A DNA stretch of 64,000 nucleotides from Desulfobulbus sp. Lineage in GTDB: Bacteria; Desulfobacterota; Desulfobulbia; Desulfobulbales; Desulfobulbaceae. The notes beneath the pieces are model-generated. The model searched no databases, was not told where the DNA came from, and saw only the letters and a list, made by a program, of their open reading frames with translations. Location of the stretch: positions 1,567 to 65,566 of the forward strand of contig JBFJXW010000001.1 of the NCBI GenBank assembly GCA_041622895.1. The letters run 5' to 3'. Shown here one piece after another: positions 45,808 to 63,545 of this stretch. The translations under genes and the position numbers were made by a program. How positions within the stretch are numbered: the first letter of the stretch is position 1; each line of letters starts with the position of its first letter.

Positions 45808-45844
45808 GCCCCGTTCCTTTTATCAGCGGAAAAAGGAACGGGGC
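45808..45844 (-). terminator. hairpin after the Yip1 gene (end of the sigma-54 operon)
   Basis: GCCCCGTTCCTTTT-ATCAGCGG(A)-AAAAGGAACGGGGC, a 14-bp stem 26 nt past the Yip1 stop. There is no clean U-tract after the stem. Confidence 0.45.
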
Positions 45845-45869
45845 AGCATGCCTGCGGCGACGGGTGGGG

Positions 45870-46454
45870 TTAGGACTGCGAGAGCGTCGGCTCCTCTCCC
45901 AGGGAAAATAGAACGTGCTTGAGGTCCGTGAGCACCGGCAGTGCCGACCAGATGAACAGCAGGAGCGCGGCAAAGGCGAGCAGGACCAGGAGGGCGGACT
46001 GCTTCCAACTGAGCGAACAGGCCTTGTTCAGCCCAAAACCGATAAGGAGCATGCGCCAGGGTTCAGTGATCATGCCAACGGCAGGCACCCAGGAAATCAG
46101 CAGGACCGGGGCGCTGGCCAAAGCAAAAACAGCATACATCCTGGAAAGTGACGTTTTCCGTCCCATGAACATGGTCATGAACATGTACGTCAGGCTCGCC
46201 GTGATCAGCGGCATGAGCATGGCATTGCACAACAACACCACTGCCAGAGGGACCGAACGACCAAAAATATAGGTACAACTGACGACCACATGAAAAATAG
46301 CCGAAATGCCGCAGATCTTGGCCGGCAGTTGCCACCCCTGATCCGGCATGTCACTGAAAAATGCGCGCGGCGCCCGAATCAGAGTGGTAATCGTTTGAAA
46401 ATAGTCGAGCCGCTGCCGTAGCATGTTGGATTCCATACGTGCTGTTTCCTGCAT
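45870..46454 (-). CDS. Yip1-domain membrane protein
   Basis: 194 aa. Soluble N-terminus ...YFQTITTLIRAPRAFF... followed by five predicted TM helices, the usual Yip1/YIPF layout. GAGGG 7 nt before the ATG. Confidence 0.65.
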   Translation of the reverse strand: MQETARMESNMLRQRLDYFQTITTLIRAPRAFFSDMPDQGWQLPAKICGISAIFHVVVSCTYIFGRSVPLAVVLLCNAMLMPLITASLTYMFMTMFMGRKTSLSRMYAVFALASAPVLLISWVPAVGMITEPWRMLLIGFGLNKACSLSWKQSALLVLLAFAALLLFIWSALPVLTDLKHVLFSLGEEPTLSQS

Positions 46455-48586: not shown

Positions 48587-48653
48587 GTTGTAACCCCTTG
48601 TATAATTTGCAGGTCAAACCGCGTTATTTTCCACTTTCACGACAGGTTGCTTC

Positions 48654-49562
48654 CTAACTGGTGAGAATGCGAACCATCTCGAAAAACAGCTCCTGCTCGC
48701 GAACGACGCCGACTACCTTCGCCCCCGCCATGACGACCAGCCTCCGTGCCGAGGCCTCGTGCATAAGGTCGCAGACCTCCATGAGATTGGCATTTTTATC
48801 GATGGGGGGCGGTGGCAGGGACATGACATGAGCCAGCGGTATCTCCGCTATTTCCTTGAGCCGCTGGGTGAGCAACCCATTCCAAAAGATGTGAGAATAG
48901 CGCCAGGTGGTGCCAGCAGCCTGACTGCGGATCTGCTCATTCGATAAATACGCGGGACGTACGGCATCGACGATCTCCTCCATGGAAACGACACCGACGA
49001 TTTCTTCATCTTGAAAAATGAGAACGCTTCTATGCCCCGTCTGCATCAGCTTTTCAGTACTCTCGAAGTGCTGGCTCGCGTCACGAAGCTTAAGGATGGC
49101 CTCCTTGAGGGTCGATTCAGGGGTAAGAACCACATACTCCTCAATGGGTATCATCAGATCGCCAACCACTTTTTCCTGACCTTTTTTCGCTGCACCGCCG
49201 AAGTTGACCGCTTCATTAATTTTGTAGGCCAACAGATCAATGTCCGCAGGCTTGGTGAGGTAATCAAAAGCACCATGCTCCAAGGTTCGTTCAGCGCTGG
49301 GACGCTCACCATGGCCTGTGAGCATAATCACCGGAATCTCTGGATTGCTTTCCTTGATCCGGGCCAGTGTCTCTTCGCCATCCATCCCTCGCATACGGAT
49401 ATCCAGGACAACGACATCCGGTTTTTCCTTAATTTTCTCAAGAGCCTCTTCGCCGCTTTCAGCTAATATGGTCTGAAAACCCTTGCGTTCGAGTATCTTT
49501 GCCGTCGTGGTTCTGAAACGTTCTTCATCATCAACCATCAGAACCTTGATTTTCTCCATCAT
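48654..49562 (-). CDS. response regulator: receiver domain fused to a CBS pair
   Basis: 302 aa. REC (VLMVDDE...VVLDIRMRGMDG...MLTGHG...LTKP), then two CBS-like repeats (...VVGVVSMEEIV..., ...VVGVVREQELF...). Confidence 0.85.
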   Translation of the reverse strand: MMEKIKVLMVDDEERFRTTTAKILERKGFQTILAESGEEALEKIKEKPDVVVLDIRMRGMDGEETLARIKESNPEIPVIMLTGHGERPSAERTLEHGAFDYLTKPADIDLLAYKINEAVNFGGAAKKGQEKVVGDLMIPIEEYVVLTPESTLKEAILKLRDASQHFESTEKLMQTGHRSVLIFQDEEIVGVVSMEEIVDAVRPAYLSNEQIRSQAAGTTWRYSHIFWNGLLTQRLKEIAEIPLAHVMSLPPPPIDKNANLMEVCDLMHEASARRLVVMAGAKVVGVVREQELFFEMVRILTS

Positions 49563-49613
49563 AGTTTCCTCCGTTGGTACCCTTAGTTGCCGTTCATTCC
49601 AATTCCAGCCCCT

Positions 49614-50018
49614 TCATTTCGACACCATCCGCAACTTGTCCTCCATTGCTTTTCGTTTGTTGAATGCCTCATCCGCTTTTGCTACGAAATCGCCGATACT
49701 CACAGGTTTTATAAGAAAATCAAAAGCACCGAGCCGGAGTCCTTCAGATGCCTGATCCCTGCTGAAGGTGCCGGTTATCATGATCACCTCAACCAGAGGG
49801 TACAGCGTCTTGATCTCCGCCAGCGTCTCCAGGCCACTTATCCCCGGCATGTTCACATCCATGAAAATAACGTCCACCTCGTGCTCTTTGAGAAGGGTGA
49901 GTGCTTGATCACCTCGTGATGCGCTAAGCACCGTGGCACCCAGCCGCTCAAAAATCTTGGTCGTGTTCCAGGTCAACCGCTCTTCATCGTCAACAATCAT
50001 GATAGTCCGCTTCTTCAT
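49614..50018 (-). CDS. single-domain (CheY-like) response regulator
   Basis: 134 aa. IMIVDDE, phospho-Asp context VIFMDVNMPG, ITGT..., LIKP. Confidence 0.88.
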   Translation of the reverse strand: MKKRTIMIVDDEERLTWNTTKIFERLGATVLSASRGDQALTLLKEHEVDVIFMDVNMPGISGLETLAEIKTLYPLVEVIMITGTFSRDQASEGLRLGAFDFLIKPVSIGDFVAKADEAFNKRKAMEDKLRMVSK

Positions 50019-50135: not shown

Positions 50136-50151
50136 AGCAATCTCCGTGCCA
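50136..50151 (-). promoter_or_regulatory. sigma-54 (-24/-12) promoter
   Basis: The minus strand reads TGGCACGGAGATTGCT, an exact match to TGGCAC-N5-TTGCW. ~118 nt upstream of the receiver-gene ATG (50018). Confidence 0.7.
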
Positions 50152-50301
50152 TGTTAAATAATTGAAATTAAACGATATTTTAAAAAATGCCGCGCCGTTG
50201 CTCGCAAACCCTTCGCAAACATGCGGTTTTGGCGGTCACGGTTGCAGCACCGCATACAGAAAAAAAATGACGGTCGGGGAGAGAAGATATCTGCGACAGA
50301 C

Positions 50302-50334
50302 AAAAAAAACCCCCTGACGGCAATCGTCAGGGGG
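50302..50334 (-). terminator. intrinsic terminator of the 50370-52064 kinase gene
   Basis: The minus strand reads CCCCCTGACG-ATTGC-CGTCAGGGGG followed by TTTTTTTT, 36 nt after the stop. Confidence 0.8.
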
Positions 50335-50369: not shown

Positions 50370-52064
50370 TCAGGCAGTGGGCAGCAGGATACTGAAGACG
50401 GTCCCCTCTCCTTCACGGGTGGTTACATCGATAGTGCCCCCCATGGATTCCACCAGACCATAGCAGACGGCCAGCCCCAGTCCCGTCCCTTTTTCCGGCG
50501 GCTTGGTGGTGAAGAACGGGGTATAAATGTTGGCCAATACTTCCTTGGGAATGCCGGTTCCATTGTCGCGAATTTTAACGAGAGCCCATCCTGGCCCCCC
50601 TGATTCAGCGGAGAACTCCAATTTCCCGTCTGTATTGCCATGTCGTTCGACAATAGCATAGATGGCATTATTGAGCAGATTGAGGAAAATTTGCTGCAAC
50701 TTGCTGGCATCGCCGAGAATAGCGGGTGTTCCGGGTTTGACCACGCGGACAAATTCAATTCCACGGGTTTCTGCTTTTTTCGCGACCATGGAACCGATGC
50801 CCTGCACCAGCTCCTGCAAATCGACTCTCGTTTCTGCAGCCTGTTCTTTGCGACCAAAGCGCAGGATGGAACTGGTAATCTCGGAACAACGGTCGATCTG
50901 CAGCATGATTTGGTCAAGACTGTCATGCACATCGTCCTTGAGCTTACCCACCAGGGGCGCCGCATGCTGTTCCGCATCTTCCAGATCAAGCCCCAATAAG
51001 GTCAGTTCCGATTTCATAATCTGAAGCGGGTTGTTGATCTCATGGGCAAAGCTGGCCGTCATTTCTCCCAACTCGGCCAGCCGGACGCTGCGATACAGCC
51101 GGTCACGAAGATGGTCCTTTTCTCCCTCCGCCTCGATAAGTGTATTGCCGATGCGATTGCTGGCAAACAATGCCAGGGAGACCGTAATGACGCCGCCAAT
51201 GGCCGAAACAATCAAAATGTATATGCCGGCAGTATAGATATCACGAAAGGCATCACTGGTTTCCTGTTGCGCCACCAGTTTCCATCGCCCCTTATTGATA
51301 CTGGCAACGGCTGCGAGATAGCGCTTCCCGCTGCTGGCCTCCTGGACGAATGTCTGCACCCCATACACCGGGCCTAGATACGATTGGGAATCAGGGGCGA
51401 AATCCAGAAGCTCCCATTTTCCTTTGTGACGCGTCTGATACTGCCCCTTGCCGTTGAGCAGAAAGGCCTCCCCGGTTGTGCCGACCCGCACCGACTCAAC
51501 AACCTTGCTAAAGGCATCGCTATCGATAGTGGCGCGTAATATCAAAGGGTCGGTACCAACACTGGCCTTGGCAACCACAAAATGGGGCACGCCTCTAAAA
51601 CCCAAAAAGACATCACTGACATATTGCCCATATTTTTTGGTGGCGAGAAACCATTCGGCATCTGCATAGTTTTTATCCATCAACTTGTGCGGCCCGCAGT
51701 AGGCCACATGCTTTCCTGTGCCATCAATGAGGCCTAAATCAACGAATGCTCCGGTCTCCTGCTGCAGACGGTCGAATAATTTCTTTAATATTTCGGGGTT
51801 CGATAGTTCTTCCGTGGAAAACGTCTGCAGCATCAAGGCAAGGTCGCTTCTGCGCTCGTCGAGATAGCGTTCGATAAACCTCGCCTGATTTTGCACAATA
51901 CGCTTCATGGTATTGTGACTGCTATTGGTCAGCGAATTGATAAAAAAGGTGTAGGCAATCGCTAGCGCCATAAGGTAGGGAACCAAGGGGACAAAGACTA
52001 TACCAAGAAAAATCATTCTCCTGGCATACTGGAAATACCTCGGTCTTTTTTTATCTTTTCCCAT
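50370..52064 (-). CDS. membrane sensor histidine kinase with periplasmic Cache-like domain (paralog A)
   Basis: Start at the ATG at 52064 (MGKDKKRPRYFQY...). Two TM helices flank a ~270-aa periplasmic domain. H-box SFAHEINNPLQI and DNGTGIP, GTGLGLAV boxes. Confidence 0.9.
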   Translation of the reverse strand: MGKDKKRPRYFQYARRMIFLGIVFVPLVPYLMALAIAYTFFINSLTNSSHNTMKRIVQNQARFIERYLDERRSDLALMLQTFSTEELSNPEILKKLFDRLQQETGAFVDLGLIDGTGKHVAYCGPHKLMDKNYADAEWFLATKKYGQYVSDVFLGFRGVPHFVVAKASVGTDPLILRATIDSDAFSKVVESVRVGTTGEAFLLNGKGQYQTRHKGKWELLDFAPDSQSYLGPVYGVQTFVQEASSGKRYLAAVASINKGRWKLVAQQETSDAFRDIYTAGIYILIVSAIGGVITVSLALFASNRIGNTLIEAEGEKDHLRDRLYRSVRLAELGEMTASFAHEINNPLQIMKSELTLLGLDLEDAEQHAAPLVGKLKDDVHDSLDQIMLQIDRCSEITSSILRFGRKEQAAETRVDLQELVQGIGSMVAKKAETRGIEFVRVVKPGTPAILGDASKLQQIFLNLLNNAIYAIVERHGNTDGKLEFSAESGGPGWALVKIRDNGTGIPKEVLANIYTPFFTTKPPEKGTGLGLAVCYGLVESMGGTIDVTTREGEGTVFSILLPTA

Positions 52065-52147: not shown

Positions 52148-52163
52148 AGCAAGGCGCATGCCA
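52148..52163 (-). promoter_or_regulatory. sigma-54 (-24/-12) promoter
   Basis: The minus strand reads TGGCATGCGCCTTGCT (TGGCAT-N5-TTGCT). ~85 nt upstream of the kinase ATG at 52064. Confidence 0.6.
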
Positions 52164-52197
52164 TTGCGAGTTGACACCCGCGCCCCCTCCCGGGCAA

Positions 52198-52373: not shown

Positions 52374-54944
52374 ATGGAAAAACAGGACAAAGAGATGCCT
52401 ACAGACGCCACTCGCCCCCTCTTCAGCCGTGTCCTTATACTCTGTGTTCCGCCTGCCCTTCTGCTTATCGCAGGTATCGGGACCCTCGGCTTTTTCACTA
52501 TCCACCAGTATGTAAACACCGCTATTGAACGGAATGTACGGATCCGCAGCACCGTTATTGCCAGGTCTATCGAAACCTTTCTGGAAAACCGCATTCGAGA
52601 TATCTCTTATCTCAGACAAGGCCGTGTGGATCGTTCGGCACTCCTGGAATTCATGCAGCGGCAGGCACGTCTTGACCCGGACCTGTACCGTGAAGCAGCC
52701 TTCCTCTCGACCTCACCATCATCAAGTATTCTGTTCGTCATGGCGGAAGGAATGGTTCGGCAGATTCCCCCCGAGGACTTTTCCGATGTACACCCCAACC
52801 CCATGCTTCTTCCTTCGAACTTGCACGCACTGGATGCCGAGGAAGTGTTCTGCACGACGATTATGGCCACGGATTTTCCTTTTCCTGCCAAAAGCGGTAT
52901 GGGCAACCGACGGGAATTCAGAACCTTTCGCATGATCACCCCTTATTCAGAACCGGGCATGCCCCCTGGATATCTAGTGTTAGGCGTGGATGCACGACGT
53001 CTGCGCAACGTACTGAGTCAGGTCTCCACTTCAAAAGACAAAGCCTGGGGATTTGAGCGCAGCAATGAAGTGCGTTTCAGTTACCTCTTCGATACCGAAG
53101 GCTGGATGCTTTTTCAGTCCGAAGCACCTGACAGCAACGATAAAAAATTGTCCACCTATCTTGCTCGCTCTGGTTTTCTCGGTACGCTTGGCAAGCCGGG
53201 TCTGCTTTCTGCTTTCCTGCCGGACAAGGAATATGAGTTGTATTGGGAAACGGTCAATAAAGTGCGCAAGGAACAGGGTGGCGTGGTGCGGATGAACGAT
53301 CGGGGCATTCACAAATCTCCCGATGCGTCTACTTCTTTTATGGCATTCGAACCAATTCGATATACAGGGAAGAAGGGGGAAGAACCGCGACTCTTTTCCG
53401 GCATGGTCTATATCGATCGGAGCCAACTGGCCTTTACTGCCAGAAAATCCGCATTCATCATTACGCTCGTATGGGTCGGCGGAACCTTGTCGCTGCTGAC
53501 CCTGTTCCTTTGCATCACCCGCCTCTTTTTCATTCACCCATTGCAGCGCTTGAAGCACAACATTGCTGCACGACTGCAGCAGGGTGTGGACAGCCCCATG
53601 ATACAACCAGGTGGGTGTGAAGAATTGAACGAGCTTGCCACAACAGCCAACCAACTCTTTCACAACCTCGATGCATGCGAGCGCAAGCTGAACAATCTTT
53701 CGGAAGATCCCATGTCCGAAAAGATGCAACAACCTGTTGATTTACGGTCAAGTTATCAATCAGCGATGGCTATGGATGACCAATTTTCCGATATTATCGG
53801 CATCAGTCCGGGCCAGATTGCACTCAAGGCTCAGGTGCTGAAAGCGGCAGGAACGAATGTTGATATCTTTATAGTGGGCGAGACAGGTACCGGAAAGCAA
53901 TTAGTTGCAGAAGCAATCCACCGGAATTCGGCACGAAAAAACGGTCCGTTCGTGTCTATTAACTGCGGCGCACTGAATGAAAGCCTGCTCCTGGATGCCC
54001 TTTTCGGCCACGTCAAGGGGGCGCATAGCGAGGCTAAAAACGATCGCAAGGGGGCCTTTATCGAATCTTCAGGTGGTACGCTTTTTCTCGATGAGATTCA
54101 GGCGGCGTCGCCTAAGGTCCAGCAATCGCTGTTGCGTGCGATAGCCGAACGGAAAATACGTCCCCTAGGCAGTGATGCCGAGATCGATGTGGATATCCGT
54201 CTTGTGACGGCAACGAACAAGGACCTGACACAACTGATCAAGGACGGACAATTCCGAGAAGATCTGTTTTACAGACTCTATGTCCTGACAATCCACACCC
54301 TGCCGCTCCGTCATCATAAAGAGGACATTCCCCTGCTTGCCTACCACTATCTGAAGCAGACGCAAGAATATGTCGACAAGTCCAACCTCCTGTTTTCCAA
54401 AGGCGCCATAAAAAAACTGCTTGCACACGACTGGCCGGGCAATGTCCGTGAGCTTGTCAATTGTATAACACGCACAGTGGTATTTGCTGAAGGACCGGTG
54501 ATTCAGGCCGACGAGTTACGCATGGAAGATCCCGAAATATATCTCAACGGGTCTGCACCCCAGCGATTGCACACGACGGTGACCAACCCTGATGGGACAC
54601 CCGCGACCAAAGGTGGCCGTTCGAACCAGAAGGATGATACCAGTACCCCGGTATCGAACGCCGCGGATGCGGCTCCTGCAGGCCGTGATCACCATCTTCC
54701 ACCGTTGGTCCTCTCTCCTCGTCAGATCAAAGTCCTCCCGGCCCTCTTGGAACGCAAAGTTATTACCCGCAAAGAGTACCAGCATTTTTTCGATGATCCC
54801 TTGCCGGCACGGACTGCGAATTACGACCTCAACGATATGATGCACAAAGGTATTCTGAAACGAGAGGGAGCCGGCTCAACGACGCGCTACGTAGTAGCGC
54901 ATACGGCTGATATACAGGTCTTGAACGACATGATAAACGCCTGA
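52374..54944 (+). CDS. membrane-anchored sigma-54 activator-like protein (sensor-HAMP-AAA+-wHTH), paralog 1
   Basis: 856 aa. TM (res ~20-45), ~310-aa extracytoplasmic domain, TM (res ~360-385), HAMP-like linker, Walker A GETGTGKQ, GAFTGA position reads GAHSEA. C-terminus LSPRQIKVL...ARTANYDLNDMMHKGILKREGAGSTTRYVV. Confidence 0.85.
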   Translation: MEKQDKEMPTDATRPLFSRVLILCVPPALLLIAGIGTLGFFTIHQYVNTAIERNVRIRSTVIARSIETFLENRIRDISYLRQGRVDRSALLEFMQRQARLDPDLYREAAFLSTSPSSSILFVMAEGMVRQIPPEDFSDVHPNPMLLPSNLHALDAEEVFCTTIMATDFPFPAKSGMGNRREFRTFRMITPYSEPGMPPGYLVLGVDARRLRNVLSQVSTSKDKAWGFERSNEVRFSYLFDTEGWMLFQSEAPDSNDKKLSTYLARSGFLGTLGKPGLLSAFLPDKEYELYWETVNKVRKEQGGVVRMNDRGIHKSPDASTSFMAFEPIRYTGKKGEEPRLFSGMVYIDRSQLAFTARKSAFIITLVWVGGTLSLLTLFLCITRLFFIHPLQRLKHNIAARLQQGVDSPMIQPGGCEELNELATTANQLFHNLDACERKLNNLSEDPMSEKMQQPVDLRSSYQSAMAMDDQFSDIIGISPGQIALKAQVLKAAGTNVDIFIVGETGTGKQLVAEAIHRNSARKNGPFVSINCGALNESLLLDALFGHVKGAHSEAKNDRKGAFIESSGGTLFLDEIQAASPKVQQSLLRAIAERKIRPLGSDAEIDVDIRLVTATNKDLTQLIKDGQFREDLFYRLYVLTIHTLPLRHHKEDIPLLAYHYLKQTQEYVDKSNLLFSKGAIKKLLAHDWPGNVRELVNCITRTVVFAEGPVIQADELRMEDPEIYLNGSAPQRLHTTVTNPDGTPATKGGRSNQKDDTSTPVSNAADAAPAGRDHHLPPLVLSPRQIKVLPALLERKVITRKEYQHFFDDPLPARTANYDLNDMMHKGILKREGAGSTTRYVVAHTADIQVLNDMINA

Positions 54945-55197
54945 CCCGTTTGTGGAGTCTATGGATCGTGCGCCAAAGGAGGAACGGCACCCGTTCGCGT
55001 GCCGGGATGGGATAGTCTGGCGGGGAGTTGTATTCACCAAATATGAGGGATCGACAGAACGGCCGCAGGCGAGGATATTCCGCACAACAGTCCGCTGCAC
55101 CGATCGACGTTGCGCGATTGCGCAATCCACACGCACCCTTTTGCGCTATTCACACGCCGGATCCCACAACACAGAAGCTCTAGTTGCTTGACCGACT

Positions 55198-57726
55198 TCA
55201 CACAACGACATAACGGGAAGATGGACCGCGCCCGGTTTTTTTCAGTATCTTTTTGGCAACAAGATCGTGCAAATCGTACTGAGCCGTGCGGACCGAAATG
55301 GCTCCTCCCACTGCAGCCTGATATTCGCCCCGACTGATGACGCCCTTGCTGGAAATTGTCGGCCAGGCTTTCCGCTGCCGAGGGTTCAGCTCAACGCCCG
55401 GGTCGTCTGCTACAGCATACTCAGCATCCAACGCCGCAGATACAGGATCAGGGGTGTCCTGAAACGCCGGCGGTGGCGCAGGTTTCGACTCGGGCAGTTT
55501 CATCGCAATCCCTGTTTCCTGCCCGCTTCTTTCATCAAAAAGAATCTGTTCGGCAAGCAGCAGCTCGCCTTCAGTAAAGGCCAGGGACCGAACAAGGCAG
55601 TTTTTCAGTTCACGGATATTTCCAGGCCAATCATAGTGCATCAGTTTTTCAAGAGCGCCCCGACTGATGCCGACTGGAGGTTTGTCGGAAATCGCCGCAT
55701 TTTCTTCCAGATAATATTTGACCAGCACCGGAATATCTTCCTTACGCTGCCGCAGCGGAGGCATGTTGATGGTAATCACGGCCAGACGGTAGTAGAGATC
55801 CTCCCGAAAATCGCCGGTACGCGAAAGCTGAAGCAGATCAACGTTGGTGGCAGCGATAATCCGGGCATCAAAAGCCACATCCGTATCGGAGCCCAGTGGC
55901 CGAATGCGTCGTACCGATAATGCCCGCAACAAGGCCTGCTGCACCTTGAGCGAAGCATTACCGATCTCGTCAAGATGCAGGGTTCCCCCTGATGCCGCGA
56001 CAAACGCCCCCTTGCGATCGGTCTGGGCATCGGAAAAGGCCCCCTTGATATGGCCAAACAGGGCGTCCATCAACAAATTTTCGTCAAGGGCACCGCAGTT
56101 GATGGAAATGAAGGGTGCTTTCGCACGATGACTGACGGAGTGGATGGCCTCCGCGGTCAATTCCTTGCCGGTTCCGGTTTCACCAATGATAAGCACATCG
56201 GCCAGTACCCTGGAGGCCTTGTGAATCTGCTGACGCAGTTCGTTAACGGCAGAGCTGCCGCCGACAATGCCGTAGAGGGGCATGGCCAGCAACTGCGGGT
56301 CAAGGGCCGGGTTGTTTTTAATCTCTTTTTCGAGATTGACGCTTTGGCGCATACGATCATCTTCAAAAATCCCTTCACGCAAAATAGTGTCATTGCGCGC
56401 AATCTGCAGCTGTAACAGCAGGATATTGATCGACCGCTGAAACTGATTGATTTCAGCAAAAAGAGGGCTCAGCGCCAGGGGTGAAGCATCGTCACCGGAG
56501 ACACGGACATCGACCGCTTCCGCCAGGAGGTCGAGCGGTCGGCTGATGCGGCGCGCGATAAAATACATGGCAAGGAATACCAGCAGCAGGCCCAAGACGA
56601 GACTGATGGCCAGTGTCCCGGCGATACGATAGGTGGAGGCCATGAACATAAAACTGGTGTCAATGCACCCGATGCCGCCGACAATGCGCTGCGTCGCCGA
56701 ATCTTCATTGAAGACAATGGGGACATAACTGAGATAGAGGGTCCTGTCGGTTCCGGACGGGGCCATAAAAGGCTTGGAGATAAATACCTGCCCTCCTTTC
56801 CCGCCCTGGACATCAGAGACCATGGCCCAATACAGGTTGTTCTCAAATCCCGGGCGAAAGGCGGTATCAAATCCGGGACGCCCAACGTCCCCCTGCAATC
56901 CGGAACGGAGCAGATCAACGGACAACTCCGCCTGGTGCTGATCCGGAGAAACCGATTCAAAAAGCAGCCAGCCCGAGGCATCAAAAAAGAAAGTCTTCTT
57001 CTGCTCGCTTTCCTGTGGGAACAGATAGAGCGGCGAATGCTTGGAGCTGTGCAGGGAAACGATATCGCGCAGGCGCGGCAGATCGAGCGAGAGTGTCAGC
57101 TGGCCCCTGTAGACCTTGTTGGCTCCATAGACGGGAGTCGAAAGGCGAAAGACATGCATGCCAATGGAATGCACCCCTCCCTGAACAGGAACAGAGGGAT
57201 AGATCACCTCCAGAGGGTCACTGATATGGACATAGCCGGCAGGTTTGCCCATGAGCTGCTCACGACGGGTAAACACACTGAACTTGGCGCCCATGGCCTG
57301 TTCGGGCGGGATGGAGACCACCGCGGAACCGGTGTTGACGAGAACAAAGTGTTCATCGGTAGCGTGCCCCTGAAAGGCGATCTCTCGATAACAGTTGCGC
57401 ACTTCCGATGAAGTTGCGGCCAGATGCTCGATAATCGACTCCTGGGTGAGCGGCATGCGCGATAAAAATTCCAACTCATACCGTGCCGCGACCAGCAGCC
57501 TGTTGATTTCATACGCCTGCGCCATTGCCCGGAGCTGCGCATTTCTCGAATACGCCTGATTGAGATACAACGAGGCGATCTTGTAGGTAACAGCCACCGA
57601 GACGGAAAGAATGACTCCCAACAGCAGCGTGCCCAAAAGAATCAGGAACTTGCCGATACTCCAGGCATAGATGGAACCATCGGTCCGGATGACTGGATTG
57701 AGGAGGGGGGGGTGGAAATAGCGCAT
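55198..57726 (-). CDS. membrane-anchored sigma-54 activator-like protein, paralog 2
   Basis: 842 aa. Same architecture as paralog 1. Walker A GETGTGKE, GAFTGA position reads GAFSDA. C-terminus LNPRQRKAW...VRTAQYDLHDLVAKKILKKTGRGPSSRYVV. GAGGA before the ATG. Confidence 0.85.
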   Translation of the reverse strand: MRYFHPPLLNPVIRTDGSIYAWSIGKFLILLGTLLLGVILSVSVAVTYKIASLYLNQAYSRNAQLRAMAQAYEINRLLVAARYELEFLSRMPLTQESIIEHLAATSSEVRNCYREIAFQGHATDEHFVLVNTGSAVVSIPPEQAMGAKFSVFTRREQLMGKPAGYVHISDPLEVIYPSVPVQGGVHSIGMHVFRLSTPVYGANKVYRGQLTLSLDLPRLRDIVSLHSSKHSPLYLFPQESEQKKTFFFDASGWLLFESVSPDQHQAELSVDLLRSGLQGDVGRPGFDTAFRPGFENNLYWAMVSDVQGGKGGQVFISKPFMAPSGTDRTLYLSYVPIVFNEDSATQRIVGGIGCIDTSFMFMASTYRIAGTLAISLVLGLLLVFLAMYFIARRISRPLDLLAEAVDVRVSGDDASPLALSPLFAEINQFQRSINILLLQLQIARNDTILREGIFEDDRMRQSVNLEKEIKNNPALDPQLLAMPLYGIVGGSSAVNELRQQIHKASRVLADVLIIGETGTGKELTAEAIHSVSHRAKAPFISINCGALDENLLMDALFGHIKGAFSDAQTDRKGAFVAASGGTLHLDEIGNASLKVQQALLRALSVRRIRPLGSDTDVAFDARIIAATNVDLLQLSRTGDFREDLYYRLAVITINMPPLRQRKEDIPVLVKYYLEENAAISDKPPVGISRGALEKLMHYDWPGNIRELKNCLVRSLAFTEGELLLAEQILFDERSGQETGIAMKLPESKPAPPPAFQDTPDPVSAALDAEYAVADDPGVELNPRQRKAWPTISSKGVISRGEYQAAVGGAISVRTAQYDLHDLVAKKILKKTGRGPSSRYVVV

Positions 57727-58056
57727 GGCTTTTCCTCATTGCGAGATATTCTGGATGCATCACGAAATCTTTGCATTTTTCTACCTGGCATCGTGCAAAA
57801 CAACAAGCGGAATTTCAATACTCCCCCGAAATACATAGTTAAAAATTTTTTGCACAAATACTGGCACACTTATTGGTTATCTTGGGCAGCTGACTTCCTC
57901 TACTCTGGGCACCGCACTCCCCCGACGAAGGAAAGAATATGCTGATCCGAGCGTCCGGATCCCCCTCCACGGCGCTCGGGTCTCCCCTTACCCTTTCCCG
58001 GCAGCAGGCCACCGGGAGATTTGAGAAAACGCTATTCAAACAACAAGGAGATCAAG

Positions 58057-58356
58057 ATGAAAACGAGACTACAACGGTTATGGTGGACACTCCTGACCTT
58101 GGTTCTGCTCACTCCGAGCCTGTCCCTGGCTGCCGGCGGTGGTAAAAGCGCTCCCATTGTCATTGTTGCAGATACCCGGCAACTCGATGGTATCATGGCC
58201 TGGTGGGCTAACCTCTACAACGAAAGTCATTTTCAGTTCATGATTCTGACCATCATCATCATTCCCGTGACCGGTGTCCTTTTCGGCGTCCTCGCTGACA
58301 TCATCATGGGATGGATCGGAATTGACCTGAAATCCCGCGAACTCGCTGAGCATTAA
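58057..58356 (+). CDS. 99-aa signal-peptide plus C-terminal-TM protein, unknown function
   Basis: ATG at 58057 after AAGGAG. Translation MKTRLQRLWWTLLTLVLLTPSLSLAAGGG... then the TM FMILTIIIIPVTGVLFGVLADIIMGWI. From memory, resembles the small 'DVU0150 family' proteins of Desulfovibrio (unverified). Confidence 0.7.
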   Translation: MKTRLQRLWWTLLTLVLLTPSLSLAAGGGKSAPIVIVADTRQLDGIMAWWANLYNESHFQFMILTIIIIPVTGVLFGVLADIIMGWIGIDLKSRELAEH

Positions 58357-58377
58357 TTCGAACCTAAGGAGATTCTC

Positions 58378-59433
58378 ATGGACTGGCTCTATATTCTCAT
58401 GCCCATTGCCGGAGTTAAGATCTTCTGGCCCGGGCTCATCATCCTCGGCGTAGGTGTTGGTATCATCGGTGGTTTCTTTGGCATGGGCGGCGCCTGGATG
58501 GTTACCCCCGGCCTCAACATCCTCGGATTTCCCATGGCCTTTGCCATCGGTACGGACATTGCCCATATGGCCGGTAAATCTTTGATTTCGACCATGCGCC
58601 ACGGCAAATTCGGCAATGTCGACTATAAACTCGGCATGATCATGCTGGTGGGTACGGTTGTCGGTTTTGAAGCCGGCGCCCAGATGGTCATGTGGCTGGA
58701 GCGACTCGGCTCAGTTGAAAAAGTCGTGCGCTGGATCTACATCGGCCTGCTGGCTTTCATTGCCTGGATGGTATTCCATGATGTCGCCAAGCGCCGCGCC
58801 AAAGAAAAAGCCGCATCCGCTCGGGGCGAAGTACTGGAAGCGGGCGCCACTGGTGTCGAGTGGCACAAGACCCTGCACAAAATCAAAATCCCGCCGATGA
58901 TCCATCTGGAAGTCGCCGGTATCTACTGCAGTGCCTGGCTGCCGATCTTCGTCAGTTTCCTTACCGGCTGGTTGGCTGGTATCCTTGGCATCGGCGGCGG
59001 TCTGATCCGTATGCCGGCCCTGATCTACATGATCGGCTGTCCGACCCACGTTGCCGTCGGCACCGACCTCTTTGAAGTAGCCATTTCCGGTCTCTACGGC
59101 GCCGCAACCTATACCTTTAAAGGACGAACCGAGCTGGTGGCCGCCATGATCATGCTGGTCGGCGCAGCCATGGGTGCTCAGGTCGGCGCGGTTGCCACCA
59201 AATACATCAAGGGCTACGGCATACGTATCGCCTTCGGCCTGGCGGTTATCGGCTGCGCGCTGTCCATCCTGATGAAACTGGTACAGCCTTGGGTGCCCCA
59301 GTACAAAGCCCTGCTCGACCTCTCTTCCACGGTTCTGGTCCTTGGCCTGGTCACCTTGATGTCCCTGTACATCTTCGTCAGGATGGTTGCCGGGGTAAAA
59401 GAAGAATTACGTGCCAAGCAGCAGCGAGTCTAA
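58378..59433 (+). CDS. TauE/SafE (DUF81) family anion permease, long form
   Basis: 351 aa. Two homologous halves each containing ...G(G/I)(F/L)(F/G)G(M/I)GGG... motifs (GGFFGMGGAW; GILGIGGGLI), separated by a charged ~48-aa loop. Confidence 0.8.
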   Translation: MDWLYILMPIAGVKIFWPGLIILGVGVGIIGGFFGMGGAWMVTPGLNILGFPMAFAIGTDIAHMAGKSLISTMRHGKFGNVDYKLGMIMLVGTVVGFEAGAQMVMWLERLGSVEKVVRWIYIGLLAFIAWMVFHDVAKRRAKEKAASARGEVLEAGATGVEWHKTLHKIKIPPMIHLEVAGIYCSAWLPIFVSFLTGWLAGILGIGGGLIRMPALIYMIGCPTHVAVGTDLFEVAISGLYGAATYTFKGRTELVAAMIMLVGAAMGAQVGAVATKYIKGYGIRIAFGLAVIGCALSILMKLVQPWVPQYKALLDLSSTVLVLGLVTLMSLYIFVRMVAGVKEELRAKQQRV

Positions 59434-59456
59434 CCAGGAAAATACATAAGGAGAAT

Positions 59457-60074
59457 ATGATGAACATTAAAAACATACTGCTCGCTGTCGCCGCAGTCAG
59501 CCTGGTCATGGGGCCCGTGGGATGTAAAGCCGATTTTTCCAAAGTGGAACAGGGCAGATGCATTGCCTTTAACAAGGACACCAAAGAGGTGACCCTGATC
59601 CATGACAGTGCCATGGATACCCAGAAACCGGTATACGATGTCCTGCCGCCTTCGGTCTTCAAACTGCCGACCGATCCCAAGGAAACCGGTCCCGAACCCA
59701 AGGCCGGTCAACGGATGAAGCTCGATACTGAGAAAAAAGTGATCGTGATCTTTGACACCACCACCCAGAAATTCGCGGATGTCCCGATCACCATCGTCGA
59801 TCTGCAGCAGCCGATTGACAAGGAACATCCACTGGTCTATGACAAGGCGGAGAAGAAAGCGAAAAAATTTCCAGTGATCGATCAGGAAAAGAAGACCATC
59901 ACGGTCTACTCCGGACGCCAGAAAATGCTCTGCACCTTCTCGGTTCCGGATGCATACTTCACCTACCCGCCAAGCACCTGGGATGCGGGCGATGAGGTAC
60001 GCTTGACCTATAAGGTCGCCGGTCAGGCCCTTCGATTCATGAATATCTCCAAAACCGATATTTTCAAAAAATAA
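59457..60074 (+). CDS. lipoprotein, unknown function
   Basis: AAGGAG before the ATG at 59457. MMNIKNILLAVAAVSLVMGPVGCK lipobox. Lys/Asp-rich soluble domain; possibly DUF4881-type (memory only). Confidence 0.75.
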   Translation: MMNIKNILLAVAAVSLVMGPVGCKADFSKVEQGRCIAFNKDTKEVTLIHDSAMDTQKPVYDVLPPSVFKLPTDPKETGPEPKAGQRMKLDTEKKVIVIFDTTTQKFADVPITIVDLQQPIDKEHPLVYDKAEKKAKKFPVIDQEKKTITVYSGRQKMLCTFSVPDAYFTYPPSTWDAGDEVRLTYKVAGQALRFMNISKTDIFKK

Positions 60075-60131
60075 CAACCGGTCCGCGGGCGGGATTGAAC
60101 CCCGCCCGCTTTTTCACAACGGGAGAATGTC

Positions 60132-60353
60132 ATGTCTGAATACAAATTTTTCCTTTTCCATAAACTGCTGGTGGTGAGCATCAACGTTCTGGTGCTCGTC
60201 GGGCTGACCGTTGCCATGTACCGGGCATCACTCACCCCTGATGATTTCAACGTCACGTTTTTTAAAACCATGTTCTCCCTGCTCATGCCCACCATGCTTC
60301 TCGGCTTTATCGGCAAGCGAATCCTCAATCGCCGCCGCATCGCACTGACATGA
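60132..60353 (+). CDS. 73-aa two-TM membrane protein
   Basis: GGGAG before the ATG. LLVVSINVLVLVGLTVAMY and MFSLLMPTMLLGFIG helices. The stop overlaps the next gene's start (ATGA at 60350-60353). Confidence 0.6.
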   Translation: MSEYKFFLFHKLLVVSINVLVLVGLTVAMYRASLTPDDFNVTFFKTMFSLLMPTMLLGFIGKRILNRRRIALT

Positions 60354-61180
60354 TTGCCGGCGCAGGCTACGTCCGCTGGCAAAAACGAGCCGGCACCTTT
60401 GCCATGGTAGTACTGGTGGCCGCCCTGCTTTCGTTTGCAGACGCCCTGGTGGGCGGCCTTACCGGAAAACATGGCACCATCAATCTCGTCCCCGACAGCC
60501 GTTATGCAATCAGCGGCCCCCTGCCGCCAAAAACCACGGAGATCAAGGAGTTCGTCATTGAAGGTCAGGCAAGAAACGGCAGAGTCCGCCTCGTTCCGGA
60601 AACCATCTTTTCCGGCTACTTGTTCGGCGGCGCCATGTGGCGCGGGGCGATTGTGGTTGATCCCCTTGCCCGCCAAGGCCGTTATGTCATCTCGGTCAAG
60701 GATCGATTTGGCGAAAAACAGAATCCGGCCCTTGTGTTCAAGGTCAGGGTCTGGCCCGATCAGGCCACTCGGAATGCCAACGCCCCCTCCTTGCTGACCC
60801 GCATGACCGGCAAAAGCCCTTATCTCTTTGCCATTGGCTTCGCGCTCTGCGGCATTGCAGCAGGCGGAGCGAACTTCCTTCTCGGCCGGCTCTGGGCGCG
60901 CCATCTGGCCGCACACCACTGTGGTGAAATCTATAAATTGCGTCACACGGAACACGGCACGGAAATAACCTGTGAAATCCACTGCCTTTCGGCTGTCCAC
61001 CCAGGCATGCCAGGTGCCATTTACCGCGCTTCGGGAGAGATGCTCTCAGCGGCTCACGTTTCAACCTGTGAAAACAACCAGGTACTGATGCTGGTCGACA
61101 CACCGCAATTCGTCCGCCTGGGAGATGTAGCCTGTCTGCAGCTCGATTCGACCGAGGGAAGAGATGTTGAGGCCGGCTGA
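60350..61180 (+). CDS. 276-aa bitopic membrane protein with Cys/His-rich cytoplasmic tail
   Basis: TM1 FAMVVLVAALLSFADALVGGL, ~130-aa beta-rich periplasmic segment, TM2 LFAIGFALCGIAAGGANFLLG, tail HHCGEIYKLRHTEHGTEITCEIHC... Translationally coupled to the 73-aa ORF. Confidence 0.65.
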   Translation: MIAGAGYVRWQKRAGTFAMVVLVAALLSFADALVGGLTGKHGTINLVPDSRYAISGPLPPKTTEIKEFVIEGQARNGRVRLVPETIFSGYLFGGAMWRGAIVVDPLARQGRYVISVKDRFGEKQNPALVFKVRVWPDQATRNANAPSLLTRMTGKSPYLFAIGFALCGIAAGGANFLLGRLWARHLAAHHCGEIYKLRHTEHGTEITCEIHCLSAVHPGMPGAIYRASGEMLSAAHVSTCENNQVLMLVDTPQFVRLGDVACLQLDSTEGRDVEAG

Positions 61181-61499
61181 TGGCACAACCTCCTTTTCCG
61201 GAAGACGCTCCGCGTTCTTGAAAAGTAATTGACAACTATTGGCAAGCTTTGTAGTGGTTACAGGTGGATATCGGATGGTCGGACCCCTCGGATTCCTTTC
61301 TTTTCACGCCACAAAGCAGCGTGTGGCAACGATCACTCATGACCATGTCTCGCCACAGCGCAACGAGGAGCCCCTTGATCCCAAAGAGTTCAGGACAACG
61401 TACAACGATACGCTCTATTTCTTCTTACCAACCCCCCTTCTCCCGGTCCGGCTGAGTCTGCCCGCACCACATTGATGACGCAGACACAAGGATAGTACA

Positions 61500-63152
61500 A
61501 TGGAAAGAAACTACACAAAACTCTGGTGGCGTCACTGCCTGGCTATTATCTGTTTTTCCGTTATTCCGCTGCTGTTCGTCAATATATCCCTCTATATACT
61601 TTTCGATAGGATTTACACCGAAAAAGTCACCGAAACGCTGCGCAGTACTGCAGAAAATCGGAGAGATGCTATTGATCTGTTCTTTAACGAACGCATCGCT
61701 CAACTGTTCACGGTCGCCAACACCAACACCTTCCAGGACCTTACCAACGAGACCTATCTCAATAAAGTATTCGATGTCATGCATGCCAAGTCCAACACCT
61801 ACATGGACATCGGTATCATCGACATGGAAGGCCACCATCTTTCTTATGTCGGCCCGTATTACAACCTGCTTAAAACAGTAAATTACAAGAACGAGCCCTG
61901 GTTCGATGCCGTCAAGGCCAACGGCATCTACATAAGCGATATCTTCATGGGCTACCGCAAGGTTCCGCACTTTATTATCGCTGTGATGGTCAGGGAAAAG
62001 AGCACGTCCTGGATACTCAGAGTCACCATTAATCTGAAAAATATCGATGAAATTGTGCAGAAGGCATGGATTGGCAATCTGAGCGATGCCTTTATCGTCA
62101 ACAGTAAAAACATGCTGCAGACCAGGCCGAGGTTCGGAGGCACTTTTCTGGAACCTCCGGTGAATCCCGATTTTTCATCGACAGTGACGACCAGGGTGAC
62201 CCGCCTTACCTTTCAGGGCATTGAATCCTTCTACGCGGCCATCCCCATCCACAACACCAAATGGGTTCTGGTTATCAAGGAAAACCCCGATGAAATGCTC
62301 TCTCCCTTGCAGAAAGGAAAATACTGGGCCGTGTTTCTCACCATGCTGGGTCTGGCCCTTATCACCACCGGTGCCGCCTTTTTCACCAACACCCTGATCA
62401 ACAGGATCAAGAAAACCGATCACGAAAATGCCATCAATTCCACCATGCTGCTGCAGGCAAACAAGATGATAGCCCTCAGCAAGATGGCCGCCGGAATCGC
62501 CCATGAGGTCAACAACCCCCTGGCCTCGATAGCCGAAAAAGCGGGCTGGCTCAAAGACCTTCTAGAGGAAGAGGATATTGCCGCAAGCAAGAATTTTGCT
62601 GAATTCAGCGAATCGGTCGACAAAATCGAACGGCATGTCGACAGAGCACGAAAAATAATTCATAATCTGCTCGGGTTTGCCCGTAGAATGGAGCCCGCCA
62701 AAGAGAAAATCAATGTCAACAACCTGCTTGACGAAACCACCGGCTTTCTGGAAAACGAAGCCAAATATGTCAATATCAACATAAAAAAACAGTACGACGA
62801 CAATGTTCCGGTTATTACCAGCGACCTGTCACAAATCCAGCAAGTCGTACTCAATCTGCTGAACAACGCCATCGACGCCATCGGTCATGACGGCACGGTG
62901 ACCGTCTCCAGCCGGTATTTTGAAAAATCCGACGAGGTGGCAATTGCTGTCGCCGATACCGGGCCTGGAATACCGGAATCCGAATTGAACAAGATCTTTG
63001 ATCCGTTCTTTACGACCAAGGAAGTTGGCAAAGGCACGGGGCTGGGCCTTTCCATATCGTACAGTATCATTGAAAAGCTGGGTGGAAAAATACAGGTTAA
63101 CAGTAAGGTAGGCGAGGGAACGGTCTTCACGATTCTCCTCCCGAAACACTAA
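61500..63152 (+). CDS. membrane sensor histidine kinase with periplasmic Cache-like domain (paralog B)
   Basis: 550 aa. TM, ~250-aa periplasmic domain, TM. H-box AAGIAHEVNNPLASI, boxes [24 protein letters not shown]. The N-terminal region aligns with the kinase at 50370-52064. Confidence 0.9.
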   Translation: MERNYTKLWWRHCLAIICFSVIPLLFVNISLYILFDRIYTEKVTETLRSTAENRRDAIDLFFNERIAQLFTVANTNTFQDLTNETYLNKVFDVMHAKSNTYMDIGIIDMEGHHLSYVGPYYNLLKTVNYKNEPWFDAVKANGIYISDIFMGYRKVPHFIIAVMVREKSTSWILRVTINLKNIDEIVQKAWIGNLSDAFIVNSKNMLQTRPRFGGTFLEPPVNPDFSSTVTTRVTRLTFQGIESFYAAIPIHNTKWVLVIKENPDEMLSPLQKGKYWAVFLTMLGLALITTGAAFFTNTLINRIKKTDHENAINSTMLLQANKMIALSKMAAGIAHEVNNPLASIAEKAGWLKDLLEEEDIAASKNFAEFSESVDKIERHVDRARKIIHNLLGFARRMEPAKEKINVNNLLDETTGFLENEAKYVNINIKKQYDDNVPVITSDLSQIQQVVLNLLNNAIDAIGHDGTVTVSSRYFEKSDEVAIAVADTGPGIPESELNKIFDPFFTTKEVGKGTGLGLSISYSIIEKLGGKIQVNSKVGEGTVFTILLPKH

Positions 63153-63161
63153 AAGGACACA

Positions 63162-63545
63162 ATGGATACATTGCGGGTGTTGATTGTTGATGATGAGGAT
63201 GATTTCAGAGAGACCATTGTCAAGAGATTAAACGCGAGAAAAATCTTCGCCGAAGGCGCAGCCAGCGGCATCAAAGCGTTGGAGGTCCTTGAAACCAAGG
63301 ATTTTGACGTTATTGTGCTGGATGTCAAGATGCCGGATATGGATGGAATTGAAACCCTGCGCCATATTAAAAAGCTCAAGCCTGAGATCGAGGTCATCAT
63401 GCTGACCGGGCATGCCTCCGTCGAATTCGGGCTCAAGGGGATGCAACTGGGGGCGTTTGACTATGTCATGAAGCCCGCCCCGCTGAACGAGTTGCTCGAC
63501 ACCATCGGCCAGGCCTTCAACAAGAAGCGCGGCATTGTTCATTAA
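63162..63545 (+). CDS. single-domain response regulator
   Basis: 127 aa. VLIVDDE, VIVLDVKMPDMDG, MLTGHAS, VMKP. 9 nt after the kinase stop. Confidence 0.9.
   Translation: MDTLRVLIVDDEDDFRETIVKRLNARKIFAEGAASGIKALEVLETKDFDVIVLDVKMPDMDGIETLRHIKKLKPEIEVIMLTGHASVEFGLKGMQLGAFDYVMKPAPLNELLDTIGQAFNKKRGIVH

Follow-up and report, generated by a model that had tools for sequence, protein, structure and literature searches.

A Convergent Pair of Probable Membrane-Anchored Sigma-54 Activators with Predicted dCache Sensors in Desulfobulbus

Introduction

How could an activator of sigma-54 promoters that appears to be fixed in the membrane reach the DNA on which it acts, and which genes would it serve there? 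The question is raised by two convergent open reading frames (ORFs) in a 64,000-nt stretch of a Desulfobulbus sp. genome (assembly GCA_041622895.1, contig JBFJXW010000001.1), called the window in what follows. The two ORFs, which we named EBP-A (52374..54944, + strand, 856 aa) and EBP-B (55198..57726, − strand, 842 aa), encode relatives of the sigma-54-dependent enhancer-binding proteins (EBPs). A preliminary description, made from the sequence alone, had read them as paralogous, receiver-less activators held in the membrane and ending in a winged helix of a non-Fis type. It had not mentioned the target operons and enhancer-like repeats described below, nor a His-for-Phe change in EBP-A.

We consider it likely, as the best explanation of the data, that EBP-A and EBP-B are membrane-anchored one-component sigma-54 EBPs of the DVU0151 family. 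The general architecture was anticipated by the 2015 description of DVU0151 (PMC4641369). New in EBP-A are the His in its L1 loop and one more helix at the C-terminus, together with a conserved regulon that has two sigma-54 promoters and a candidate enhancer made of tandem repeats. In the literature that we searched, no paper characterizes any member of the family experimentally or discusses its membrane anchoring; on membrane-anchored EBPs, the search returned only the 2015 regulome paper.

Results and Discussion

Domain Architecture of EBP-A and EBP-B

The two ORFs leave 253 bp between their stop codons. The call of EBP-A rests on the ORF, on Pfam and on alignment with 16 orthologue clusters (51–70% identity, all metagenomic), and that of EBP-B on the ORF, on Pfam and on BLASTP to EBP-A. 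In BLASTP, the two proteins were 36% identical over 813 aligned columns (E = 2e-151), and because this alignment spans the sensor, the AAA+ core and the C-terminal module, they can be regarded as genuine full-length paralogues, convergent as first described.

Pfam recognized the sigma-54 activator domain (Sigma54_activat, PF00158) with E = 4e-58 in EBP-A and 8e-59 in EBP-B, and AAA_lid_14 in both. The same scan gave no match to REC (PF00072), GAF, PAS or HTH_8 in either protein, which bears out the claim that they are receiver-less. The missing HTH_8 is not an artefact of sensitivity, because a positive control, the NtrC-like protein encoded at 39197-40600 of the window, was matched for REC, AAA+ and HTH_8 (the last at 1.1e-05) in that scan. 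Among the NCBIfam models, those for NifA, NorR, NtrC and similar proteins aligned to the central AAA+ part alone and scored far under every equivalog cut-off.

The AAA+ sigma-54 interaction domain plus lid spans 53796..54524 (+) in EBP-A, as judged from Pfam and alignment, and 55537..56268 (−) in EBP-B, as judged from Pfam and the sequence. Alignment and sequence place the Walker A motif of EBP-A (GETGTGK) at 53877-53897 (+) and its Walker B motif (LFLDEI) at 54081-54098 (+). In an alignment of 45 full-length homologues, from which the sensor and the C-terminal module were also cut out as sub-alignments, GETGTGK, LFLDEI and conserved Arg/Asn residues were invariant across all sequences and both clades; the sensor and C-terminal motifs pointed out in the preliminary description were also present and conserved across these homologues. 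Both proteins are confirmed to share one layout: a transmembrane (TM) segment, a periplasmic dCache domain, a second TM segment, a HAMP-like linker, the sigma-54 AAA+ domain, a low-complexity linker and a C-terminal winged helix.

Membrane Segments, Sensor and Linker

Each protein contains only two strongly hydrophobic segments, with 19-residue Kyte–Doolittle means of 2.2–2.8. In EBP-A (+ strand), TM1 comprises residues 19-43 (RVLILCVPPALLLIAGIGTLGFFTI; 52428..52502; hydropathy peak 2.43) and TM2 residues 360-381 (53451..53516; hydropathy peak 2.17). In EBP-B (− strand), hydropathy placed TM1 at residues 27-49 (57580..57648) and TM2 at residues 369-391 (56554..56622). In both proteins, Arg or Lys residues are found ahead of TM1 and behind TM2. 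The hydropathy peaks and the flanking basic residues agree with the two TM segments proposed earlier; from hydropathy, charge distribution and fold, we infer that EBP-A and EBP-B are two-pass inner-membrane proteins with cytoplasmic N- and C-termini.

The region of about 310 aa between the TM segments of EBP-A (52503..53450, +) was modelled by AlphaFold2 (AF2) with a predicted local distance difference test score (pLDDT) of 86.6. When this model was compared with the PDB by Foldseek, all 50 of the top 50 matches were dCache ligand-binding domains of histidine kinases (HKs) and chemoreceptors (E = 3e-10 to 3e-6), including 3lid, TlpA, TlpC, TlpQ and PctD; Pfam dCache_1 gave an E-value of 2.9e-05, which is under its threshold. 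The model, a check that the preliminary description had proposed with dCache as its guess, points to a double-Cache fold between the TM helices. The corresponding region of EBP-B (56623..57579, −) would be a dCache-type sensor by homology to that of EBP-A (Pfam dCache_1, 3.3e-04), and dCache_1 was matched at E < 0.01 in 19 of the 45 relatives. As in the dCache sensors of chemoreceptors and HKs (vpHK1S-Z8, 3lid; Helicobacter pylori TlpA and TlpC; PctA-type), a long helix and two PAS-like modules appear to lie between two TM segments and to be followed by a HAMP-like linker. Unlike in those proteins, to which identity is 9–16%, the predicted output is an AAA+ transcription activator and not a kinase or a methyl-accepting domain.

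The linker behind TM2 covers 53517..53783 (+) in EBP-A, where it could be HAMP-like or coiled and shows an N-terminal Pro and an AS2-like helix (EELNELATTANQLFHNL), and 56287..56553 (−) in EBP-B. Pfam HAMP (PF00672) matched 10 of the 45 relatives at the homologous position (best 1.7e-6) and EBP-B with E = 0.058 at residues 389-419; EBP-A gave no match. These matches make a HAMP linker, as first suggested, plausible.

Such linkers also invite a different reading of the anchor, namely that it sequesters the protein until regulated proteolysis frees the AAA+ domain and the C-terminal winged helix-turn-helix (wHTH) as a soluble EBP. The long low-complexity and HAMP-like linkers could contain cleavage sites, and shorter AAA+-wHTH proteins of 442–678 aa are present in databases. 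However, the shorter proteins may be contig-truncated fragments, neither gene neighbourhood contains a conserved protease gene, and dCache-TM-HAMP modules normally signal without cleavage, as is established for HKs and chemoreceptors. We consider release by proteolysis very unlikely and favour signalling by the intact, membrane-anchored protein.

The C-Terminal Winged Helix

Beyond the AAA+ domain of EBP-A, a low-complexity Pro/Ala/Thr-rich tether of about 61 aa can be read from the sequence (54525..54707, +). It leads to the C-terminal module (54708..54941, +), which AF2, Foldseek and profile search describe as a winged helix plus a terminal helix specific to the EBP-A clade (hereafter the A clade). 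The winged helix of EBP-B, located by alignment and Pfam, lies at 55201..55401 (−). AF2 modelled the EBP-A module with a pLDDT of 95.8 and the elements H7-19, H24-28, H37-49, E53-56, E63-66 and H72-80, that is, three helices followed by a beta-hairpin wing (H-H-H-strand-strand), with an extra helix in EBP-A.

The Foldseek matches of this module (MarR, ArsR/SqrR, TrmBL2, RosR, MecI and AspA; TM-scores 0.62–0.75) are all winged-helix DNA binders. In a profile search of PDB sequences, a Fic-family protein, matched in its C-terminal wHTH (8cil_A, residues 301-369; E = 0.019), and DIP2311 (3lmm) came out best. When 30 C-terminal modules were scanned singly, 25 matched PF22168 (DIP2311-like_C; best 5e-8), and several matched TrmB or HTH_DeoR. 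HTH_8 (PF02954) gave no match at E ≤ 10 on the isolated C-termini, and none in the 45 relatives or the 30 modules. The module resembles the wHTH of Fic/DeoR-like proteins, as the preliminary description had held, and did not align to the Fis-type helix-turn-helix (HTH) that was named there as the contrary outcome and that the control at 39197 showed.

A profile of the wHTH module collected about 470 clusters (50% identity) at E ≤ 1e-10, most of them proteins of 800–960 aa that belong to the EBP family. Since the module is also found on other architectures (SLFN/AlbA_2-HATPase_c_4, TPR, multi-wHTH and shorter HAMP-AAA+ proteins), it seems to be a mobile DNA-binding module and not an invention specific to EBPs.

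Candidate Target Genes and Enhancers of EBP-A

Upstream sequence was compared for eight A-type loci, namely the window, L001 and L003–L008. In all eight, the EBP-A-type gene is divergent from a gene for a dCache HK, which in the window (50370..52064, −; Pfam dCache_1, HisKA and HATPase_c) would be the first candidate target of EBP-A. Where the contig continues, the HK gene is followed by a stand-alone REC, usually by a REC-CBS, and then by a DASS or CitMHS/TrkA_C anion transporter; the order REC, REC-CBS, DASS is the same in L003, L005, L006 and L007. In the window, this second operon (46730..50018, −) consists of REC (49614-50018), REC-CBS (48654-49562) and a DASS Na+-coupled anion symporter (46730-48586). 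An intrinsic terminator stem after the HK gene (50310..50334, −), formed by a perfect 10-bp inverted repeat (CCCCCTGACG/CGTCAGGGGG) and a T8 tail, and a separate exact-consensus promoter before REC indicate that HK and REC belong to two sigma-54 transcription units.

The promoter of the HK gene, P_HK (TGGCATGCGCCTTGCT; 52148..52163, −), is divergent from EBP-A and keeps the form TGGCAT-N5-TTGC(T/A) in all eight loci; in seven of them, it is found 66–83 nt before the HK start. The promoter of the REC operon, P_REC (TGGCACGGAGATTGCT; 50136..50151, −), matches the consensus exactly and is conserved in all eight loci, 90–122 nt before the REC start. Although the three best -24/-12 matches (TGGCAC-N5-TTGC) in the window flank the EBP-A/EBP-B pair, the window-wide count alone is not above chance. 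The promoter evidence is conservation at fixed distance, for two promoters in 8/8 A-type loci and for one in the 6/6 B-type loci treated below.

The intergenic regions between the EBP-A-type and HK genes are enriched in the words CTCGCA, TCTCGC, TCGCAA and CGCAAT. TCGCAA was observed 14 times against 0.93 expected, a count that none of 2000 first-order simulations reached, and all nine copies of the exact pair TCGCAA-N4-TCGCAA present in ~190 kb (both strands) fall in P_HK or P_REC regions. On the transcribed strand at P_REC, each repeat reads TTGCGA; 2–3 copies recur with a 10–11 bp period at a constant position, about -67/-56/-46 relative to the -24 T, and a 30-bp AT-rich stretch follows them. 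In the window, an independent repeat search located the candidate EBP-A enhancer at 50202..50220 (TTTGCGAAGGGTTTGCGAG, i.e., TCGCAAAC twice on the plus strand with 11-bp spacing), 56–67 nt upstream of -24, and the position is fixed in the other loci. The repeats at P_HK are opposite in orientation to those at P_REC: they form a tandem pair abutting -24 in L001, L004 and L008 and lie 106–128 nt upstream of -24 in L005 and L006. In the intergenic alignment, the window shows a single A-type box (AACTCGCAAT; 52163..52172, −) abutting the -24 of P_HK. We infer from this distribution that the TTGCGA/TCGCAA repeats would be the enhancer of EBP-A.

EBP-B and the DVU0151 Precedent

In the regulome study of Kazakov et al. 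(2015; PMC4641369), DVU0151 is a one-component EBP and the only one among the 37 EBPs of Desulfovibrio vulgaris Hildenborough without an annotated Fis HTH. Its orthologues match a SUPERFAMILY winged-helix model, its long conserved N-terminal region was given no sensing function, and its GAFSEA loop was judged functional. DVU0151 was predicted to regulate the divergent sigma-54 operon DVU0150-DVU0146, which encodes a hypothetical membrane protein, a TSUP transporter and lipoproteins, through sites such as TTTTTCGCGCAAAA and TTTTGCGCGATCAG. The DVU0145-0150 cluster, to which no function is assigned, is induced when cells grow in syntrophic co-culture and repressed once they resume sulfate respiration (PMC4265775). 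The likeness to DVU0151 that the preliminary description had pointed out is therefore correct, and the architecture had already been published.

Judged from its sequence and surroundings, EBP-B is a DVU0151-type member in the same synteny as DVU0151, a relation based on synteny, motif and Desulfovibrionaceae relatives (P0021, P0042 and P0059) and not on the DVU0151 sequence. It is 73% identical to a Desulfobulbus propionicus DSM 2032 protein labelled 'Sigma 54 interacting domain protein'; database labels of relatives also include 'sigma 54-interacting transcriptional regulator' and 'putative sensor with HAMP domain'. With DVU0151, EBP-B shares the one-component plan, a long N-terminus that is not REC, GAF or PAS, the lack of a Fis HTH, the C-terminal winged helix and the Ser of the L1 loop (GAFSEA in DVU0151, GAFSDA in EBP-B), as well as a divergent sigma-54 promoter before genes for a DVU0150-family membrane protein, a TSUP/TauE transporter and lipoproteins, and the TTGCG core of the predicted motif. 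The differences are an identity of only about 36–41% to Desulfovibrionaceae members and that TM segments and a dCache fold are not described in PMC4641369. EBP-A departs further from DVU0151 in its TCGCAA tandem direct repeats, the His in L1 and the extra C-terminal helix; because its divergent operon is HK/REC/DASS, we assign it to a paralogous sub-family and do not regard it as a DVU0151 orthologue.

The candidate target operon of EBP-B (58057..63545, +; Pfam, NCBIfam and synteny) begins with a DVU0150-family protein of 99 aa (58057-58356; NF040783 DVU0150_fam equivalog, 2e-46) and continues on the same strand with a TauE/TSUP permease (58378-59433), a DUF4881 lipoprotein (59457-60074), two small ORFs of 73 aa and 276 aa, a dCache HK (61500-63152) and a stand-alone REC (63162-63545). 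The order EBP, DVU0150, TauE, DUF4881 and, further on, HK and REC is identical in L002, L009, L010 and L011, the D. propionicus DSM 2032 protein being encoded in L009; a related order is found beside the Solidesulfovibrio alcoholivorans homologue (L012). Each EBP is hence linked to its own dCache HK, the two kinases being 30% identical over their full length, and to its own stand-alone REC. A shared ligand for the EBP-A sensor and the sensor of the adjacent HK was also considered; the two were compared, and their similarity does not exceed what chance would give.

The sigma-54 promoter of the DVU0150 operon (TGGCACACTTATTGGT; 57862..57877, +) is divergent from EBP-B. Upstream regions of six B-type loci were aligned (the window, L002, L005, L009, L010 and L011). 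The TGG of -24 is invariant in all six, and TGGCAC is kept in these Desulfobulbus-type loci; a TTGCACAA box lies 6 nt upstream, and a distal A(T/A)CGCGCAA(A/T)A box, the reverse complement of the published DVU0151 motif, lies about 65 nt upstream. From this alignment and a repeat search, the candidate EBP-B sites in the window (57793..57855) are GTGCAAAA (57793-57800) and the inverted TTTTGCAC (57848-57855), which ends 6 nt before -24; both resemble the published motif TTTTGCGCG/TTTTTCACG. EBP-B most likely activates the operon from the DVU0150-family gene through TauE (TSUP) and DUF4881 to HK and REC via these GCGCAA/GTGCAA boxes.

The A-type box TCGCAA and the B-type box GCGCAA/GTGCAA have a common CGCAA core and differ at the 5' edge. 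In parallel, the predicted recognition helix reads RTANYDLND in EBP-A and RTA(Q/I)YDL(H/Q)D in the others. The boxes might nevertheless be operators of another regulator, the wHTH serving for dimerization or for non-specific tethering to DNA: DNA binding by the wHTH is a prediction, and the EBP-A regulon encodes HK and REC proteins of unassigned output. However, the REC and REC-CBS proteins lack a DNA-binding output domain and the EBP is the only DNA-binding protein that co-varies with the repeats, which makes EBP-A the candidate for binding them. Moreover, the two box types differ in step with the predicted recognition helix, and their TTGCG core is found again in the DVU0151 motif, which was published independently. 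We give another owner of the boxes very little credence and retain the EBPs as the proteins that probably bind them.

The convergent pairing of EBP-A and EBP-B is seen again in L002 and L005, with L007 a probable further case. L001, L003, L004 and L008 lack it, their A-type gene having no B-type gene next to it, which makes the pairing lineage-specific and not obligatory. In the convergent spacer of the window (55110-55157), we noticed three TTGCGC boxes (TTGCGCGATT, TTGCGCAATCCACACGC and TTGCGCTATTCACACGC), including the palindrome GATTGCGCAATC, that resemble B-type boxes; L005 shares them with the window, L002 does so in part, and the B-only loci L009–L011 have none downstream of B. A search for a bidirectional terminator between the two genes gave no convincing candidate. 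A box that matches the A-type consensus exactly (ATCTCGCAAT; 57738-57747, −) covers the ribosome-binding region of EBP-B and lies some 120 bp upstream of the promoter on the B side. Cross-regulation of EBP-B by EBP-A through this box was considered and is kept as a possibility only, the box being conserved in neither L005 nor L002.

The Histidine Loop of the A Clade

The A clade comprises 18 protein clusters, from metagenomes and one Desulfomicrobium metagenome-assembled genome. A scan of 185,579 species-representative genomes (GTDB) with two A-clade sensor peptides gave one confirmed locus, in that same Desulfomicrobium genome (L001). As far as these sequence collections reach, the A clade is a rare, derived and previously undescribed paralogue.

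The L1 loop of EBP-A reads GAHSEA (residues 549-554; 54018..54035, +), with His in place of the Phe of GAFTGA. The His is present in 18 of 18 A-clade clusters, in the form GAHSEA or, in one, GAHSGA. Other family proteins have no His in L1: about 225 read GAF(S/T)(E/D)A and five GAYTEA. EBP-B, whose loop was located by alignment (GAFSDA; 56026-56043, −), keeps the Phe, so that a GAFTGA-type loop with an aromatic residue at position 3 is present in EBP-B and not, at that residue, in EBP-A.

In PspF, the corresponding F85 contacts region I of sigma-54, as does T86, and the F85pBpa substitution abolishes sigma-54 binding and open-complex formation but leaves the ATPase intact (PMC3467059). A 2025 survey takes GAFTGA to be invariant and uses the motif as a filter for EBPs (PMC12316311), and the list of L1 variants tolerated in D. 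vulgaris contains no His (PMC4641369). Nothing relevant on a GAH-type loop or on F85H emerged from the literature searched. Reportedly, only Tyr keeps activity in place of F85 of PspF.

It could be argued, then, that EBP-A does not activate at all: ATP hydrolysis and DNA binding would be retained, but the sigma-54 holoenzyme would not be remodelled. Its role at the TTGCGA repeats would be that of a repressor or an anti-activator, or it would function only in mixed rings with a GAF-type partner such as EBP-B, much as HrpR and HrpS do. The uniform GAHSEA/GAHSGA loop and the PspF data speak for this, as do the repeats abutting -24 in three loci, where a bound protein could occlude the promoter, and the adjacency of EBP-A and EBP-B in the window, L002 and L005. 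On the other hand, the His is strictly conserved and not decaying, all the ATPase motifs are intact, and four loci carry an A-type gene without an adjacent B. In addition, 8/8 loci show co-variation of the A gene with both sigma-54 promoters and their A-specific repeats, no other conserved EBP is found nearby, and the repeats of P_REC are placed upstream in the classical way, at about -80 relative to the start site. Loss of activator function thus seems unlikely to us. Because the His is fixed down to 51% identity, the ATPase motifs are intact and the sigma-54 promoters are conserved together with clade-specific repeats, we favour EBP-A as a functional activator with an unusual sigma-54 contact.

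A bolder version of this proposal, conceivable but in our opinion rather doubtful, is that the A-clade EBPs would be fully functional despite the His and would work, membrane-anchored, from promoter-proximal tandem repeats. The stand-alone REC and the paralogous HKs of both regulons would feed back on them in trans (a 'split NtrC'), and the His would be a protonation- or metal-tunable contact to sigma-54. Whatever its role, the EBP-A loop offers a natural experiment on how strictly the Phe of GAFTGA is needed, as the His is fixed, the ATPase motifs are intact and sigma-54 promoters are adjacent.

Proposed Mechanism

In the mechanism that we propose, each protein would be inserted in the membrane by two passes, as predicted from hydropathy, charge distribution and fold, and its periplasmic dCache domain would bind a small ligand. 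Organic or sulfur oxyanions are a candidate ligand class, suggested by the DASS transporter for EBP-A, by TauE/TSUP for EBP-B and by the sulfate-free induction of the D. vulgaris cluster, although this link is weak. By analogy with kinases and chemoreceptors, the signal would pass through TM2 and the HAMP-like linker to the AAA+ domain and alter its assembly or ATPase activity. The wHTH, on a flexible tether of 45–61 aa, may then position the membrane-bound oligomer on the short repeats near sigma-54 promoters, as their co-variation suggests, and tandem repeats at helical periodicity would place several tethered wHTHs on one face of the DNA. Conserved promoters and the published prediction of the DVU0151 regulon suggest that adjacent operons would be activated in a sigma-54-dependent manner. 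From 2–3 tandem TTGCGA repeats, EBP-A would most likely activate P_HK and P_REC and thereby the genes for HK and for REC, REC-CBS and DASS. The stand-alone RECs might, speculatively, act in trans on the receiver-less EBPs as a feedback.

Several points weigh against this picture. The dCache_1 scores (PF02743) are below the gathering threshold, with 21–24 bits for EBP-A and 16–21 bits for EBP-B against a cut-off of 45, and the HAMP scores of EBP-A and EBP-B themselves are also under the Pfam gathering threshold. The His at the position equivalent to Phe85 of PspF could abolish activation by EBP-A. Repeats that abut -24, as in L001, L004 and L008, are an unusual geometry for an enhancer, and P_HK of the window has just a single good box near the promoter. 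The -12 element of the DVU0150-operon promoter is TTGG, TTGT or TTGA in 6/6 Desulfobulbus-type loci (TTGG in the window), lacking the canonical C, whereas the D. vulgaris site has TTGC at -12 (PMC4641369). P_HK, P_REC and the DVU0150 promoter might have another EBP as their activator. Finally, no RNA run with this sequence was found, the only matches being in marine-metagenome DNA runs.

Comparison with known systems helps to place the two proteins. Like EBPs of the NtrC, DctD and ZraR type, they have an AAA+ sigma-54 domain with all catalytic motifs and would be enhancer-dependent at -24/-12 promoters; unlike those EBPs, which are soluble, REC-controlled and equipped with a Fis-type HTH_8 (exemplified in the window at 39197-40600), they have a predicted periplasmic dCache input and wHTH output. 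With ToxR and CadC, they share the union of a sensor and a DNA-binding domain of winged-helix type in one membrane-anchored chain, so that DNA would be bound at the membrane. ToxR and CadC, however, are single-pass proteins that work with sigma-70, carry an N-terminal OmpR-type wHTH and have no ATPase, whereas EBP-A and EBP-B would have two TM segments, an oligomerizing AAA+ domain and a C-terminal MarR/TrmB-like wHTH. The HrpR/HrpS pair of Pseudomonas syringae (PMC3105312) offers a parallel for two adjacent paralogous EBPs without REC, which makes hetero-oligomers possible. HrpR and HrpS differ from EBP-A and EBP-B in being soluble, in their co-transcription and in their obligate co-operation at a single promoter. 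The present genes converge; each has a divergent candidate target operon and a box type of its own, and several genomes contain the A type with no B next to it.

The locus thus bears on the problem of how a membrane-anchored AAA+ ring reaches its promoter. It also provides defined candidate enhancers, namely TTGCGA tandems at -67/-56/-46 or abutting -24. The tie between EBP-B and the DVU0145-0150 cluster (PMC4265775) adds that a dCache ligand could explain the syntrophic, sulfate-free induction of that cluster in D. vulgaris.

Neighbouring Genes

A conventional NtrC-type pair is encoded at 39197-41850 of the window. It consists of the REC-AAA+-HTH_8 regulator used above as control (39197-40600) and an ORF upstream that overlaps it (40597-41850) and probably encodes its kinase.

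Downstream of the DASS symporter gene and on the same strand, 43979-46454 encodes two proteins, one a membrane protein with a Yip1 domain and the other an NhaB Na+/H+ antiporter (NF007093, 8e-244). This order of Yip1 and NhaB recurs in L003, and the antiporter might be a sodium-cycle partner of the DASS symporter.

Phage-type integrase genes were observed directly beside the A-type gene in L003 (12860-14089) and near the B-type gene in L011 (11737-14715). There are hints, then, that the EBP modules occupy variable or mobile genome positions. In L011, the integrase is followed by a SLFN_AlbA_2/HATPase_c_4 gene, a family that also carries the wHTH module.

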